The position numbers and the translations under genes are program-made. From Thermoplasmata archaeon (GTDB taxonomy: Archaea; Thermoplasmatota; Thermoplasmata; GCA-020350865), in the NCBI GenBank assembly GCA_020348445.1, contig CP070751.1, positions 5,092,204 to 5,156,203 on the forward strand: 64,000 bases of DNA, in the 5' to 3' direction. The notes beneath the pieces were generated by a model. That model worked only from the letters and a program-made list of their open reading frames with translations. It searched no databases and was not told the DNA's origin. Position 1 is the stretch's first letter; every line of letters starts with the position of its first letter. Below are positions 56,081 to 64,000 of this stretch, piece after piece.

Positions 56081-57787
56081 TTGACTCGTTTCGTAGATTA
56101 TTTAAAATCATATTACAGGGTTTGTCGTTTGGAGTATTTACCAGGTGAAGTTCCAGCCATATTTACGGTGCTATTTCTTGGTTCTGTGTCGATATCAAGA
56201 TTTTTTGAACTGCCAGTTGTAGAGGCACTTGTGGCGTTTGTTCTCCTTTACCTCTCTGGATTTATAATAAACGCCCTGGCAGACAAGGAGATCGATAAAA
56301 AATACGATACCTTCAAAACCAGCATACCAAAATCTGTGGAGTTGCTTGGCGAGAAAACCCTCTGGGCCATGATTATCGGCCATGTTGTGGTTGCCATAGT
56401 ACTGGCCTTTCATATTTCAATTATGATGAGCAGCATCTGGCCTATTGCACTGGTTTTGATAGGCGTCTTCTTTGGCCTTGGATACTCTGTTCGGCCCTTT
56501 CATTTCAAGGTCAGGGGTGTTTGGCATGCCATAGCCTTGGGCTCTTCGGCTTTCTTCCTACCCTTCGTATTTCTCATGTTCGTTGTCGCAGAGGGGATCA
56601 CAATCCCCCTCTTCATTTTCATAATAGGCTTTTGCTTTATTCACTATGGAATGGAATTCGGCAACCAGGCCATTGATTATGTGGAGGACAAGGCCTCCAA
56701 CGTACAGACACCACCTGTGAGATGGGGCATGATTCCCTCCATCCAGATCGCCTTATTCTGCGTTGTCATAGGAATAGTGGTAGAGGCATCAAGTCTATAC
56801 TTCATCCTCCTTGCCAAGGGGAGCTTCACATTTGTGCATCCGTTTTTAACAACCGAGGTAGTTTATGCGGGACTTTTGGCGATAATTGCAGCTGGCTACT
56901 ACATACCCACAAAGGGACTATGGCGGATGTTGACAACATTGAAAGAGTCCGAGACTGTGGAGAAGGGAATGCCAACCCTTAAGAGGATATGCAATTATGC
57001 AAAGTGGCAGACCAGCGGTATCCTTGGTGTCACTGTTGTTAGCGCAATTCTATTTTTAGGTGTGGTTTTGGGACCTGTTAGCACGCTCTCTCCGGAGGAC
57101 ACTGGGGGTCCAGACATTATTGAAGGTAATCTGAAAATCGCCTCTAACCCTGAGGTGGAGTTCTTCGAGGATAATGAGGGTTGGCATGCCAATGTCAACA
57201 TTTCTGTGCTCAACGATGATAATCTTAGAGAGAAGAGGACCCTTATGATCGAAGTAGAATCCTGGTTAGCGAATATCCCTAGGTGGGCGGAATGGAAGAT
57301 TTTGGAAGAGGATCTGATGCCAAATCAATATTGGAATGTTAGTATAACGATAAAGGCACACGAGGAGGATGACACAACTTTAAAAATATATATCAAACAA
57401 TATAATAACAATATTAAGGATTTCGTGCAGGTGGGCAATCCATGGGTTGTGCCAAGTCAGAAGGACCTATATATCTATGATGCTTACGCCAAAGAATTTG
57501 AAGATACACTTCACAATAAAAAGGCCAATGTTACTGTAACAGTGTTTAATCATGGAGATATGAGATCCATAGGCAGCCTGAAAGTGGAGGTATGGTATTA
57601 TTACCTAGGGTATTCAAGTTATGGAAGTAAAGAAAATGAGTACGCTATTGGTTCAAATAAGAATTGGCAACCCACAATCACGTTAAATGCCCTCCAATTA
57701 GATGATATCAACAAGCCATTCTTTGTAGTATACCTTATCTATAATGAGGCTTACGTAGATGAATATAAATTCTCCGGCTATGACTAG
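56081..57787 (+). CDS. UbiA-family prenyltransferase fused to C-terminal soluble Ig/CARDB-like domains
   Basis: First Asp-rich motif NALADKEID and second NQAIDYVED, about 8-9 TM segments, then ~230 aa with two ANV.(I/V)SV.N..D.R beta units. Confidence 0.82.
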   Translation: MTRFVDYLKSYYRVCRLEYLPGEVPAIFTVLFLGSVSISRFFELPVVEALVAFVLLYLSGFIINALADKEIDKKYDTFKTSIPKSVELLGEKTLWAMIIGHVVVAIVLAFHISIMMSSIWPIALVLIGVFFGLGYSVRPFHFKVRGVWHAIALGSSAFFLPFVFLMFVVAEGITIPLFIFIIGFCFIHYGMEFGNQAIDYVEDKASNVQTPPVRWGMIPSIQIALFCVVIGIVVEASSLYFILLAKGSFTFVHPFLTTEVVYAGLLAIIAAGYYIPTKGLWRMLTTLKESETVEKGMPTLKRICNYAKWQTSGILGVTVVSAILFLGVVLGPVSTLSPEDTGGPDIIEGNLKIASNPEVEFFEDNEGWHANVNISVLNDDNLREKRTLMIEVESWLANIPRWAEWKILEEDLMPNQYWNVSITIKAHEEDDTTLKIYIKQYNNNIKDFVQVGNPWVVPSQKDLYIYDAYAKEFEDTLHNKKANVTVTVFNHGDMRSIGSLKVEVWYYYLGYSSYGSKENEYAIGSNKNWQPTITLNALQLDDINKPFFVVYLIYNEAYVDEYKFSGYD

Positions 57788-58371: not shown

Positions 58372-59067
58372 ATGGTAGCAACTTCCAAGAAATCAAGAAA
58401 AGAGGAGTATATTTCTGATGCCAATCTGCAAGCCAAATCTCGCAATTGGCTTTCTGATATCAGATATTATTCATATGGTATCGACGATTGGAAGTACGTT
58501 CCAACATCCTCGGCATTAATTGTTATGGATATGCAAAAGTTCTTCTTATCAGAGGAATCACATGCTTTCATCCCGGCATCAAAAGCCATTATCCCAAATG
58601 TCAGGGACCTTATAGCATCTTTCAGAAATCGCGACCTTCCTGTCATTTTTACCCGGCATTCATTAAAGAAGAATGAAGAGCCGGGCATCATGGGAAGATG
58701 GTGGGCCGATGTGATCAGGGAAGACTCCGAGCTCTCCAATATCACCAACTTGCTGACACCTCTTGATTCGGAGATCGTCATCAGAAAGACGAGGTACAGC
58801 GCATTTTTCGGAACAGAGCTTGAGAAAGTTCTAAAAAGGGAGAAAGTAGAGAATATCGTTGTGACTGGTGTGATGACCCATCTTTGCTGCGAAACAACGG
58901 CCCGGGAGGCGTTCATGAAGGACTTCGAGGTGTTCTTTGTTGTGGACGCAACAGCCACGCAGAATGAAGAACTGCATCTCTCCACATTGAGGACGCTTTC
59001 TGATGGTTTTGCAGTTCCTGTCACGACCAAGGAGATATTAAAAGAAATAGAGGAGGGGAAAACATGA
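58372..59067 (+). CDS. Isochorismatase-family cysteine hydrolase
   Basis: Asp-Lys-Cys triad motifs LIVMDMQ, IRKTRYSAF and GVMTHLCCETTAR. Confidence 0.92.
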   Translation: MVATSKKSRKEEYISDANLQAKSRNWLSDIRYYSYGIDDWKYVPTSSALIVMDMQKFFLSEESHAFIPASKAIIPNVRDLIASFRNRDLPVIFTRHSLKKNEEPGIMGRWWADVIREDSELSNITNLLTPLDSEIVIRKTRYSAFFGTELEKVLKREKVENIVVTGVMTHLCCETTAREAFMKDFEVFFVVDATATQNEELHLSTLRTLSDGFAVPVTTKEILKEIEEGKT

Positions 59068-59960
59068 ATGACAATGTGATAATAGGGGCAGGCCCTGCTG
59101 GAATTGCCTCTGCTATATATCTGAAGAGGGCTGGATTTGATCCTATAGTATTGGAAAAGGGAGAGGTGGGCGGACTGCTTTTGAATGCCAACCTTGTGGA
59201 AAACTACCCTGGATTTCCTGAAGGAATTTGTGGGAGAGCTCTGGTAGGGGTGTTTAGGAAACAGCTTGCTCGCCTGGGAATAGAGGTGCAAGCCAAGGAG
59301 GTATCGAGCATTTCATTAAAAGACGGACTATTTGCTCTTGATGTTGATGATGATGAAATCATATCCCGCTCATTAATAGTTGCCACTGGTACGAAACCAA
59401 AATGCCTTGGTATCCAGGGTGAATCCACTCTGTTGGGAAAGAAACTATTTTATGAAATAAAGGATATTCCCGCGCTCTCATGGGAAGGCACTATTGCCAT
59501 CATCGGAGCAGGGGATGCGGCATTTGACTACGCCTTGAACCTTGCAGATGATGTGTCGCAGGTGGATATAATCATGAGAAACGATAGGCCCAAATGCCTT
59601 TCTTTGCTTTGGGAGCGGGTGAAAGAAAGCGATAATATACAGACCCATCCAAAAACAGTTCCCATTGCGTTCGAAGAGGGGGATGGAATTATCACAAAAT
59701 GCACAACCGAGGATAAGGAGATCTCATTTAGCTCAGAATACACCCTCATCGCCTGTGGAAGAGAGCCTAATCTTGATATATTTCCCAAAGATGTTGTTAA
59801 AACCTTGATCATAGAGGAGGATGGAGGAACCAATATACCAGGTCTCTTTATTGCCGGGGATGTGAGAAGGGGACGCAGAAGGCAGGCTGGAATCGCGGTG
59901 GGTGACGGCATCTTGTGTGCCATGTCGGCGATGGATTATCTAAAAGGAGAGGAGCCCTAA
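59064..59960 (+). CDS. FAD/NAD(P)-dependent oxidoreductase, thioredoxin reductase-like fold, lacking the CxxC
   Basis: IIGAGPAG, VENYPGF, IVATG, IIGAGDAA and GLFIAGD; no CxxC in the expected segment. Confidence 0.9.
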   Translation: MNDNVIIGAGPAGIASAIYLKRAGFDPIVLEKGEVGGLLLNANLVENYPGFPEGICGRALVGVFRKQLARLGIEVQAKEVSSISLKDGLFALDVDDDEIISRSLIVATGTKPKCLGIQGESTLLGKKLFYEIKDIPALSWEGTIAIIGAGDAAFDYALNLADDVSQVDIIMRNDRPKCLSLLWERVKESDNIQTHPKTVPIAFEEGDGIITKCTTEDKEISFSSEYTLIACGREPNLDIFPKDVVKTLIIEEDGGTNIPGLFIAGDVRRGRRRQAGIAVGDGILCAMSAMDYLKGEEP

Positions 59961-60919
59961 TGAGGATCCTGGATGTCTTTGGAAAGGAGGATCTGGCAAA
60001 GGTATATGTTGCTTCTATGCGGGATAATGATAAATACATGGTCGAGTTCGTGGAATCCACCCAACCTCCGATTCCCAGGGACAAAAAATGGGTTTTAATC
60101 GTGTCTTCGCTCTTCGGCTGCCCTGTTGGCTGCAGGATGTGCGATGCGGGAGGTAAGTTCTTTGGGAAGCTCAAAACAGACGAAATATTGCAGCAGATCG
60201 ATTATCTCGTGAAGAAAAGATATCCCGATGGTAAAATTCCTGTTCCCAAATTCAAAATCCAGTTCGCGAGAATGGGAGAGCCCTCCATGAATCCCAATGT
60301 TCTTGATGCCCTTGCAAGGCTACCTGAGGTTTATGATGCACCAGGACTTCTTCCATCTCTTTCCACAGTTGCACCTGCAAACGGTAAAGATTTCTTTGAG
60401 GGATTGATCAAAATCAAGGACAAGTACTACTCGAACGGAAGGTTTCAATTGCAGTTCTCTATACACTCCACCAACTCCGCTTCTAGGGATGAGCTCATCC
60501 CCATTAAGAAATGGAGCTTCGAGGAAATCGCAGAATACGGGGCAAGGTTCCACAAGGATGGGGACAAGAAGATAACACTCAATTTCGCCACAGCCAAAGG
60601 TTACGAGGTAGACCCTGAGAATGTGCGGGAGTATTTTGATCCTAATCTGTTTTTAATAAAACTGACCCCCTTAAATCCAACTGTGAGGGTCAAGGAGAGT
60701 AGACTCGAGTCCGCAATCGATCCCTATGATTCCAACTCAGCAGCCAAGATCGTGGAGGATTTCAAGTCCCATGGTTTTGATGTGATTCTGAGTATCGGTG
60801 AGGTGGAGGAGAACAAGATAGGTTCAAACTGCGGGCAGTACGTGACCCAATACAGAACCACCCAAACATCAATAAAAGAGGGCTATGAAACCCATAAGTA
60901 TCAGATGGGATCAAATTAA
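59915..60919 (+). CDS. RlmN/Cfr-like radical SAM protein; true start probably ATG 59960 (TAATG overlap)
   Basis: VSSLFGCPVGCRMC (CxxxCxxC), RMGEP, FSIHS...RDELIP, KLTPLNP and NCGQ. Confidence 0.9.
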   Translation: MCHVGDGLSKRRGALMRILDVFGKEDLAKVYVASMRDNDKYMVEFVESTQPPIPRDKKWVLIVSSLFGCPVGCRMCDAGGKFFGKLKTDEILQQIDYLVKKRYPDGKIPVPKFKIQFARMGEPSMNPNVLDALARLPEVYDAPGLLPSLSTVAPANGKDFFEGLIKIKDKYYSNGRFQLQFSIHSTNSASRDELIPIKKWSFEEIAEYGARFHKDGDKKITLNFATAKGYEVDPENVREYFDPNLFLIKLTPLNPTVRVKESRLESAIDPYDSNSAAKIVEDFKSHGFDVILSIGEVEENKIGSNCGQYVTQYRTTQTSIKEGYETHKYQMGSN

Positions 60920-60925
60920 ACGGAG

Positions 60926-61462
60926 TTGGGATTTAAGATGGCCTTATATCAATTGGAGGACAGGGTTCCCCAAATCGGGAAGGAAACTTATGTTGCTGAA
61001 TCTGCAGAGGTCATAGGAAAGGTGATCATCGGCAACAATTGTTATATAGGTCATGGGGCAAGAATAAGAGGGGATTACGGAACAATAATAATAGGTGATT
61101 ACTCCATCGTGGAGGACAACTGTGTTCTGCATGCAAGGCCTGATGACATCTGCAAAATAGGAGAGCATGTCACAATTGGCCATGGAGCCATAATTCACAA
61201 TGCCACAATTTACGATTGGGTGGTGGTGGGTATGGGCGCCATCGTTAGCGATTTTGCAGTTGTTGGCGAGTGGGGTGTTGTTGGAGAAGGTGCTGTGGTA
61301 AGAAATAACCAGGAAATTCCCAAAGGCAAGGTGGCTGTTGGAGTTCCGGCGAAGGTCATAGCGGATGTTAAGGACGATTATAAAGAGCTGTGGACGAGGT
61401 ACAAGGGATTGTATAGGGAGCTTGCCAAGAGGAATATCGAGGGTTTGAAGAAGATTGACTGA
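60926..61462 (+). CDS. Gamma-carbonic anhydrase family protein (YrdA/CaiE-like); true start probably ATG 60938
   Basis: Hexapeptide repeats, RGDYG, VEDNCVLH, TIGHGAIIH and GVPAK. Confidence 0.9.
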   Translation: MGFKMALYQLEDRVPQIGKETYVAESAEVIGKVIIGNNCYIGHGARIRGDYGTIIIGDYSIVEDNCVLHARPDDICKIGEHVTIGHGAIIHNATIYDWVVVGMGAIVSDFAVVGEWGVVGEGAVVRNNQEIPKGKVAVGVPAKVIADVKDDYKELWTRYKGLYRELAKRNIEGLKKID

Positions 61463-61586: not shown

Positions 61587-62804
61587 ATGAGGAGGGCTTC
61601 GAAGACAAAAATACTCCTGCTTTCAGCGATACTTGTTCTAATCCTTGTAGCAGATCCCTTTTCCTTGAAATCAATATCATTTCTTCAAACAGCTTCTGCG
61701 CCCACAAGGGAATATGAAGATAATATCACCATCCCAGCAAACGACCTCCGAGCCTTGGATTTGGTGTTCGTGGAAGGCGATGAACTGGAGCTTATTTTCT
61801 CGATACAGGTGAAACAAGATCTTCCCGTCGATATCTGGTTTGTGGATTATGCGAATTATGTAAGGCTTGTTGATGGTAACGAGTTTTTATATTTCATTGA
61901 CGGCTCAGGGAAGAACCTTACCAAGGCAACTAAGGTCGTCTCACTTACACAACATGGGACCTATGAACTGGTATTTGTCAATTCTAATGCTGAGGCAGTG
62001 GAGGTCTACCTTACCTACGATATAAATATCTATCCTGTTAAAAGCGACCCACCGCCAATAACCGGTAAAGTCGTGGACGAAGAAGGAGCCCCAATAGAAG
62101 GTGCGATTGTACAATTAATTAACGACAATGACATTACTCTTTTAACTTATACAACCAACTCGACAGGCGATTTTAAATTTTTTAATATATCTGTTGGCAC
62201 CTATAGTCTAATTATATCTGCGGACGGATTCGAAAAGAACAATAAAACATCTGCAACTATTTCATCGGATGCTCCTATAGTAGATCTAGGTAGTATTAAG
62301 CTTGTTGCCATCCCTGAGCCTTCTGAGCCTTCTGAACCTTCTGAGCCGTCTGATGATGAGACTCCGTTTTGGCAATCTTCCATGTTCATGCTCCCTCTTG
62401 GAATTATACTGGGAATTATCATTGGCCTGGTACTCTCTTTTGCGCTGCGTGGATCAAAGGAGGAGCCCAAGGCTGCTGTGCAACCTGCACGGGAAGTGCG
62501 TGTCCGAAAAGCTGTGAAGAAAACACCCAAAGCTCCTGCCAAAGCACCCACAAAGAGGGTAAGGGTCCGCAAGGCCAAGAAAAAAGTACCAGAGGCTACA
62601 AAGGAGGCTTCTGCAGATGAGGTTGAAGAGCCAGAACTTGAGGAGGAAGAAGAGTCGGATGCTTTGAAAGAATCAAAAGCCATGGAAGAAGAAGCTACTG
62701 CACCAAAAAAGGATACTCCTCAACCTAAATTCTGTGGTAACTGCGGATGGCCTGTAGAGACACCTTTTTGTCCTTCTTGCGGGAAAAAGGTTGGGACACC
62801 TTAG
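61587..62804 (+). CDS. Single-pass membrane protein: signal, beta domain, carboxypeptidase-regulatory-like domain, PSE linker, TM, charged tail, C-terminal Zn ribbon
   Basis: ITGKVVDEEGAPIEGAIV...TNSTGDF.F...GTYSL is followed by (PSE)n, a TM and finally FCGNCG...FCPSCG. Confidence 0.82.
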   Translation: MRRASKTKILLLSAILVLILVADPFSLKSISFLQTASAPTREYEDNITIPANDLRALDLVFVEGDELELIFSIQVKQDLPVDIWFVDYANYVRLVDGNEFLYFIDGSGKNLTKATKVVSLTQHGTYELVFVNSNAEAVEVYLTYDINIYPVKSDPPPITGKVVDEEGAPIEGAIVQLINDNDITLLTYTTNSTGDFKFFNISVGTYSLIISADGFEKNNKTSATISSDAPIVDLGSIKLVAIPEPSEPSEPSEPSDDETPFWQSSMFMLPLGIILGIIIGLVLSFALRGSKEEPKAAVQPAREVRVRKAVKKTPKAPAKAPTKRVRVRKAKKKVPEATKEASADEVEEPELEEEEESDALKESKAMEEEATAPKKDTPQPKFCGNCGWPVETPFCPSCGKKVGTP

Positions 62805-63111: not shown

Positions 63112-64000
63112 TTAATCTGTGGCCAATACAGTTATAATCCCAGTACTTGACTTGGCTTTTAGATCTCCATCGGCCTCATCAACATAAATTACAAAACCCG
63201 TTGATGGATTAGCAGGTGCAGGTATAGGGTCGAGATTAATTGTCCCGTTTACATGAAGTGTATTCTCTGGGCTCACGGTCCCAATGCCGACATTGCCGCC
63301 CATGATCGCCATTGTGTTGGCTTGTGTTATCGTCCACCCATTGATATTATAGGCTAAACCAATCCCGAAACTGTAATCTCCTTCAGCAGTAATCCTGCTT
63401 CCCATCGTGGTTGAATAATTCCCGTTGGCGTTTGTTTGATAACCCATCGCGGTTGAACTCCGCCCGTTGGCGTCTGTACCACGTCCCATCGCGGTTGAAA
63501 ATTCTCCGCGGGCGACTGTACTATCCCCCATCGCGGTTGAAGATTCTCCGTAGGCGAATGTACTAGCCCCCATCGCAGTTGAACTCCACGCAAGAGCGTG
63601 TGTACTATACCCCATCGCGATTGAATAATCCCCGCTGGCGTTTGTCATTAACCCCATCGCGGTTGAACCACTTCCGTAGGCGACTGTCCAAATCCCCATC
63701 GAGGTTGACCACCACCCGCTGGCGGTTGTGTTGTATCCCATTGCTATCGCATGATCCCCAGTAGCTAAATTATTGCTGGAACCTATGGTTGCTGCTCCAC
63801 CAACACCAAAGAACTCAGAACCGACATCCACATCCAATTTCACCTCTGGACTTATCGTCCCAATACCGATGTTCCCTCCAGTTTCGTAGATTACTGAATT
63901 GCCTAGGGTATTGCCAGCTGTGAACTTGGGAATATAATTAGCAGTGCCACTGCCACCTATTCCACCTGTAACAGTTAAATCATATTCTGTACCACCATCA
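63112..64000 (-). CDS. YadA-head-like (14-aa AMG repeat) adhesin or fibre protein, C-terminal part; runs off the right edge
   Basis: The frame is open to the edge (DGGTEYDLTVTGGIGGSGTANYIPKF...GNIGIGTISP). About 9 repeats of AMG..T.A.G..ST are flanked by GNVGIGT motifs. Confidence 0.85.
   Translation of the reverse strand, partial: DGGTEYDLTVTGGIGGSGTANYIPKFTAGNTLGNSVIYETGGNIGIGTISPEVKLDVDVGSEFFGVGGAATIGSSNNLATGDHAIAMGYNTTASGWWSTSMGIWTVAYGSGSTAMGLMTNASGDYSIAMGYSTHALAWSSTAMGASTFAYGESSTAMGDSTVARGEFSTAMGRGTDANGRSSTAMGYQTNANGNYSTTMGSRITAEGDYSFGIGLAYNINGWTITQANTMAIMGGNVGIGTVSPENTLHVNGTINLDPIPAPANPSTGFVIYVDEADGDLKAKSSTGIITVLATD

Follow-up and report, generated by a model that had tools for sequence, protein, structure and literature searches.

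Three overlapping genes in a 64,000-nucleotide stretch of a Thermoplasmata genome (contig CP070751.1, positions 5,092,204 to 5,156,203; hereafter the window, whose own numbering we use) form one functional module, in which a minimal RlmN/Cfr-like radical S-adenosylmethionine (SAM) enzyme is the hub and a flavoprotein and a cysteine hydrolase are obligate partners. The host genome is of sediment origin and consists of one contig of 5.16 Mb. Four open reading frames (ORFs) lie on the same strand (+) at the locus. The first three, which we call the trio, encode (i) P0001 (58372-59067, 231 amino acids), an isochorismatase-family cysteine hydrolase recognised by its PF00857 match; (ii) P0002 (59064-59960, 298 amino acids), a flavoprotein with the thioredoxin reductase (TrxR) fold and motifs for flavin adenine dinucleotide (FAD) and reduced nicotinamide adenine dinucleotide (phosphate), NAD(P)H, but no redox-active disulfide, as judged by its TIGR01292 match and alignment to TrxR; and (iii) P0003 (59960-60919, 319 amino acids, start ATG at 59960), the radical SAM enzyme. 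The end of the hydrolase gene and the start of the flavoprotein gene share ATGA (59064-59067, +), and the next junction, between flavoprotein and radical SAM genes, has the overlap TAATG (59958-59962, +); both overlaps had been reported in a preliminary description made from the DNA letters, and both are confirmed by the sequence and the ORF list. No characterised pathway matched the trio in Pfam, NCBIfam, PADLOC, the PDB or the literature searched: we found no curated family, solved structure or published description of the module, and PADLOC gave no meaningful defence-system match.

We assessed co-occurrence in a set of 41 relatives from 19 families, using a threshold of E≤1e-29 for hydrolase orthologues. 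The radical SAM gene was present in 21 of the 41 relatives, covering 11 of the 19 families, and a hydrolase orthologue was likewise present in 21. Both genes were found in 20 relatives and neither in 19; the two mismatches lie where contigs end, in genomes of 74% and 57% completeness. In 12 loci from the relatives, the flavoprotein gene always adjoined the radical SAM gene, and the hydrolase gene usually did.

A wider survey with one genome per species returned at least 585 confirmed matching stretches, with 53-67% identity, in anaerobic archaea and bacteria. Besides Thermoplasmata, the trio occurs in over ten phyla of bacteria; the taxa include Chloroflexota, Acetothermia (Bipolaricaulota), Fraserbacteria, Planctomycetota, Acidobacteriota, Ignavibacteria (Ignavibacteriota), Latescibacterota, Cloacimonadota and one Heimdallarchaeota bin, among others. 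Gene order, which we judged on the best 80 loci, was hydrolase-flavoprotein-radical SAM in about 68 of them, and most of the others are cut by contig ends. One family has the rearranged order radical SAM-hydrolase-flavoprotein. Genomes in which the hydrolase gene is unlinked carry it at another site. The same-genus genome G001, for example, carries a full hydrolase copy (G001:C1:1807289-1807957) 1.1 Mb from the trio site, and the old site retains, beside the flavoprotein gene, a 49-residue hydrolase remnant (G001:C1:2913190-2913336) with 76% identity to residues 179-227.

The pairwise distance matrices of the three proteins correlate with r of 0.84-0.89 across 42 loci, and the trio proteins share one evolutionary history. 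In the tree, mainly archaeal and mainly bacterial clades each include members of the other domain, so the trio has moved between domains more than once; the copy in the window groups with its own genus. The two partner genes are often translationally coupled to the radical SAM gene, and natural fusions join the proteins in pairs: flavoprotein-radical SAM fusions form nine clusters, all without a CxxC motif, and radical SAM-hydrolase fusions form seven clusters, all with the cysteine of a CGQ motif. The fusion survey of the trio proteins found no further fused domain. Because the arrangement recurs in hundreds of genomes, it lies far beyond chance. A chance adjacency of three unrelated functions has nothing to recommend it beyond the absence of a known pathway, and it is contradicted by the conserved order across two domains, the all-or-none co-occurrence, the correlated evolution and the natural fusions; we consider its probability negligible.

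We looked for further components of the module. No recurrent fourth gene emerged from clustering of 1081 neighbouring ORFs or from a Pfam tally of 40 co-directional neighbours, and a search of the RNA leaders upstream of 11 bacterial loci returned two transfer RNAs (tRNAs) only and no riboswitch. The trio itself was not found on viral contigs, where only sister families occur. The fourth ORF of the locus, P0004 (60926-61462, +), encodes a gamma-carbonic-anhydrase/PaaY-like hexapeptide-repeat protein whose Hexapep, PaaY and gamma-carbonic-anhydrase matches fall below curated cut-offs; its likelier start is ATG 60938, 18 nt past the radical SAM stop. Genes of this type adjoin the trio solely in same-genus loci, and P0004 is a genus-only neighbour rather than a module member. 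The preliminary description had proposed a self-contained module, and the co-occurrence reported above bears this out; the gamma-carbonic-anhydrase-family gene, which it noted as following closely, does so within the genus only.

The best curated match of P0003 is the RlmN model TIGR00048, with 46.2 bits against a cut-off of 290, and the Cfr model NF000424 gave 42 bits against 530. The cluster-binding motif C54x3C58x2C61 lies at 60119-60142. A fourth cysteine, Cys291 (60830-60832), sits in an SNC291GQ loop inside the region aligned to TIGR00048. These four never vary among 77 members, and no further cysteine of the family is conserved; Cys291 with its loop is the most conserved stretch of the protein. 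In RlmN, the methyl carrier is Cys355 and the resolving cysteine, Cys118, lies seven residues before the first cluster cysteine. The P0003 residue that aligns to Cys118 is Ile47 (60098-60100), in a column that is variable in the family. The alignment begins at position 83 of the 355 in the model, hence the N-terminal accessory (RNA-binding) domain is missing, and the protein starts at the beta-strands before the cluster motif. The predicted fold (mean predicted local distance difference test score, pLDDT, 92.7) is closest in Foldseek to RlmN (template modelling score, TM, 0.72; E 1e-15) and Cfr, with a clear gap to the next radical SAM fold (E 3e-6). The ESM Atlas gave the label 'radical SAM protein' and nothing more specific, and cluster look-ups for names or cultured hosts returned metagenomic records only.

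P0002 scored 186 bits against the thioredoxin reductase model TIGR01292, below its cut-off of 343, in a match covering 3-293 of its 298 residues. Alignment to TrxR structures places Tyr130 and Lys133 at both cysteines of the TrxR CxxC, where P0002 reads YEIK (59451-59462). At least 93% of members retain the FAD and NAD(P)H motifs, G8xG10xxG13 and G148xG150xxA153. The flavoprotein family has zero conserved cysteines among 58 members, C178 being present in 48 of them.

P0001 carries a full-length PF00857 Isochorismatase domain (156.6 bits, cut-off 27). Its catalytic triad of Asp53 (58528-58530), Lys139 (58786-58788) and Cys172 (58885-58887) aligns with that of the cysteine hydrolase 3irv (tnvCCETT vs thlCCETT), and across 58 family members each of the three residues has a conservation of at least 93%, Cys172 being present in all 58. 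The top structural relative is EntB (2fq1), which has a glycine at the position of the nucleophilic Cys172; P0001 is therefore no true isochorismatase. An N-terminal extension of about 45 residues and a WW motif are both family-specific, and the protein scores under all the NCBIfam equivalog cut-offs, namely those for BiuH, RutB, YcaC and PncA. The preliminary description had called an isochorismatase-type amidohydrolase, a TrxB fold without CxxC, and an RlmN fold lacking the resolving cysteine and the N-terminal extension, and these assignments all stand on the scores and alignments given here.

We tentatively propose, at a probability of roughly 0.4, that the module transfers a methyl or methylene group, in the manner of class A enzymes, to a small N-heteroaromatic substrate, with the flavoprotein supplying electrons and the hydrolase processing an amide. 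The radical SAM enzyme would act as a class A (RlmN/Cfr-type) methylase in which a first SAM methylates the loop Cys291. A second SAM would be cleaved at the [4Fe-4S] cluster, and the resulting 5'-deoxyadenosyl radical would convert the S-methyl group to a Cys-S-CH2 radical, which would add to an sp2 carbon of a small purine-, pyridine- or nucleotide-type N-heteroaromatic rather than to ribosomal RNA (rRNA). The CxxC-less flavoprotein would stand in for the Cys118/Cys355 disulfide cycle of RlmN: through its FAD, NAD(P)H electrons would reach the cluster and would also serve to free the Cys-CH2-substrate adduct. Either before or after this radical chemistry, the cysteine hydrolase would cut an amide-type bond in the substrate or in the product. 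We favour class-A-like chemistry because the Cys291 loop is the most conserved part of P0003 and its fold resembles those of RlmN and Cfr most, and we assign adduct release to the flavoprotein because the RlmN resolving cysteine is absent. The universal pairing and the fusions fit a flavoprotein that acts as cluster reductase and, equally, one that resolves the Cys-CH2-substrate adduct.

A profile search for minimal RlmN-like proteins, which returned 181 cluster representatives at E≤1e-30, also provides context for this proposal, as it includes sister subfamilies of the trio enzyme. One consists of fusions of a QueT-type transporter, a radical SAM domain and a 5'-methylthioadenosine/S-adenosylhomocysteine (MTA/SAH) nucleosidase. 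Its members P0235, P0244 and P0217, from metagenomes and metagenome-assembled genomes of Bacilli, combine a QueT-type energy-coupling factor (ECF) S-component with an RlmN-like radical SAM domain in which the loop cysteine is absent, and the nucleosidase domain is complete in P0235 and P0244. Such fusions hint at a small-molecule substrate. The P0231 family (phrog_24834) comprises RlmN-like radical SAM proteins of about 332 amino acids, again without the loop cysteine; it occurs in 43 viral loci (L122-L166) and also in Moorella, and no conserved neighbours were found for this phage family. A third, short subfamily of about 286 amino acids and about 30% identity stops before the cysteine loop.

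Several observations weigh against the methyl-transfer proposal. Every mechanistic step in it is drawn from homology. The sister subfamilies without the loop cysteine mean that the scaffold is not restricted to methylation, Cys291 could have another role, such as hydrogen donor, and the dedicated flavoprotein could serve solely as cluster reductase. The nearest structures of the hydrolase are isochorismatases, with no clear tie to heteroaromatic amides, and profiles for QueC, NadA, the NAPRTase family, ThyX and MqnA/D revealed no pathway link in the 41 relatives. The main rival is a non-methylating reaction, in which Cys291 would donate a hydrogen atom or relay a thiyl radical in a small-molecule radical lyase, reductase or isomerase; the flavoprotein would return the enzyme to its reduced state in every turnover, with the hydrolase acting before or after. 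Related subfamilies on the same minimal scaffold do without the C-terminal cysteine, so RlmN-like cores are capable of other radical reactions; without the resolving cysteine, the class A cycle loses one of its defining parts; and a stoichiometric demand for reductant would explain the obligate flavoprotein. Yet the SNCGQ loop equals the RlmN/Cfr methyl-carrier loop in both sequence and position and never varies in the family, and such a reaction lacks precedent within the clade. We regard this explanation as rather unlikely.

We then considered whether the substrate is RNA. P0003 could be an rRNA or tRNA adenine C-methyltransferase with the function of RlmN or Cfr, perhaps as a mobile ribosome-protection cassette. 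RlmN and Cfr are its sole recognisable relatives, the Joint Genome Institute (JGI) annotates many family members as 23S rRNA (adenine2503-C2)-methyltransferase, and the family is distributed patchily, by horizontal spread and with no fixed neighbours, much like a resistance cassette. Against this, P0003 falls far under the family cut-off and has neither the RNA-binding domain nor Cys118. A canonical RlmN above the cut-off stands alongside the trio in three of five bacterial hosts; these three proteins keep both cysteines (TLCIS/TVCVS at the resolving site) and are basic (isoelectric point, pI, 8.6-9.2), in contrast to the acidic trio family (median pI 5.9). The obligate cysteine amidohydrolase partner, moreover, has no role in RNA methylation. 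The lost N-terminal domain, the acidic pI, the co-resident RlmN and the amidohydrolase together make an rRNA or tRNA target unlikely on these sequence features, and we think the methyltransferase/cassette interpretation quite improbable. The JGI label is apparently a mis-annotation of the family: the score, the missing domain and the missing Cys118 give it no support. A small molecule, as the preliminary description had suggested, fits better than RNA, given the RlmN of the bacterial hosts and the pI contrast. We did not find a canonical RlmN in the archaeal host. As a side observation, a TIGR00048 search of control genomes gave 11 matches, 10 of them above the cut-off; Methanocaldococcus jannaschii is among the matches and may carry a minimal RlmN-like protein.

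The short sister subfamily points to one type of small molecule. It adjoins genes for NadV, a nicotinamide phosphoribosyltransferase (NAMPT), and NadM-Nudix; at least eight distinct loci, viral or metagenomic, show this proximity in several gene orders (the loci of the subfamily being L112/L248, L116/L170, L118/L244, L120, L246, L252, L253, L255, L256 and L260). In five members that are more distant (L264-L270), a Nudix gene lies about 1 kb upstream. These neighbourhoods suggest that the short subfamily is an undescribed radical SAM component of phage nicotinamide adenine dinucleotide (NAD+) salvage. For the clade as a whole, the NadV/NadM-Nudix link is a possible lead to nucleotide-type small molecules, with no direct transfer to the trio. 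If it did extend to the trio, the module would act on nicotinamide or a pyridine/adenine dinucleotide, with the hydrolase as a nicotinamidase-like deamidase. The isochorismatase family does include nicotinamidase, and the conserved motifs predict that the flavoprotein binds NAD(P)H. However, the NadV link comes from a sister family without the Cys loop rather than from the trio, and P0001 scored just 25.4 bits on the nicotinamidase PncA model NF008623 (cut-off 174), with other family models scoring higher. A NAPRTase/NAMPT-family gene was found in none of the 41 Thermoplasmata relatives, so classical nicotinate use is not apparent. Nor does the trio anticorrelate with de novo synthesis, as 20 of its 21 carriers have NadA. 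An NAD-related substrate is thus improbable in our estimation.

Other pathway links were tried and rejected. QueC is present in 41/41 relatives, which therefore show no queuine salvage pattern; this distribution and the lack of a profile link to the trio led us to reject a 7-deazaguanine connection. We also rejected an assignment as the queuine lyase QueL, as P0003 (at E≤1) and P0235 (at E≤0.01) match only RlmN/Cfr in the PDB. NadA occurs in 35/41 relatives overall and has no profile link to the trio, and the NAPRTase-family link was dropped on its count of zero. The same applies to thymidylate synthesis (ThyX in 27/41 relatives, with a very strict E-value) and to futalosine (MqnA/D in 3/41 relatives, all without the trio). 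For a 2-methyladenine cobamide, a literature search gave no support.

Immediately upstream of the trio, a gene for a DUF5788 protein (PF19101; 57845-58342, +) ends 29 nt before the hydrolase start, as read directly from the intergenic sequence, and it is probably co-transcribed with the trio because the gap is so short; the same order was seen in only one same-genus locus. Further upstream and co-directional, positions 56081-57787 encode a UbiA-family prenyltransferase of 568 amino acids with a long C-terminal extension. The order of the UbiA-like and DUF5788 genes upstream of the trio is kept solely within the genus. On the other side, positions 61587-62804 encode a 405-amino-acid protein in which an N-terminal hydrophobic segment is accompanied by a CarboxypepD_reg domain, a PEPSEPSEPSEPSD repeat and, at the C-terminus, a zinc-ribbon-like motif. 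An ORF on the minus strand (63112-63999, continuing beyond the window) contains five stretches of YadA-head repeats (PF05658), an adhesin-type repeat that is unusual for an archaeon.

To our knowledge, the RNA enzymes RlmN and Cfr are the only class A radical SAM methylases described, and two cysteines define their mechanism. The trio family is large and cross-domain, keeps one of the two class A cysteines and has lost the other, and is always accompanied by a flavoprotein and a cysteine hydrolase. Should the flavoprotein indeed perform the resolving step, the trio would represent radical SAM chemistry of a new kind and a self-sufficient system driven by NAD(P)H; with a free metabolite as substrate, many sediment anaerobes would make a hitherto unknown modified nucleobase or cofactor. 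In the most far-reaching form of the proposal, the trio would define a new mechanistic class of radical SAM C-methylase, in which the flavoprotein replaces the resolving cysteine by releasing the Cys-CH2-substrate adduct reductively with NAD(P)H, and a free nucleobase, nucleotide or cofactor, not RNA, becomes a C-methylated metabolite widespread in anaerobic archaea and bacteria. We hold this version to be doubtful. The natural fusion proteins are ready-made constructs for biochemistry.

Each trio protein can be set beside a known system. P0001 resembles the isochorismatase-like cysteine hydrolases (PF00857, 3irv) in its full domain and Asp-Lys-Cys triad, and its family differs from them in its own N-terminal extension and WW motif and in an occasional C-terminal fusion to the radical SAM enzyme. 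P0002 shares with low-molecular-weight thioredoxin reductase (TIGR01292) the full-length fold and both nucleotide-binding motifs; unlike that enzyme, it lacks the CxxC, scores below the cut-off and is always paired with, or N-terminally fused to, a radical SAM protein. CxxC-less offshoots of TrxR, including the TrxR-type ferredoxin-NADP+ reductases, may be compared with it as well. The likeness to QueL of Clostridioides difficile (queK-qrtT-queL) is one of context only, through the QueT-type fusion of a sister subfamily, and neither P0003 nor the QueT-fused P0235 has a sequence match to the QueL structure. With RlmN and Cfr (3rfa, 5hr6, 9p0p, 6fz6), P0003 shares the fold, the CX3CX2C, GEP, SxH...R and PxNP motifs and the C-terminal CGQ cysteine loop. 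It departs from them in lacking the N-terminal RNA-binding domain and a cysteine at the Cys118 position and in scoring far under their cut-offs, and, as a family, in being acidic, in having obligate flavoprotein and hydrolase partners, and in residing alongside a true RlmN in bacteria.

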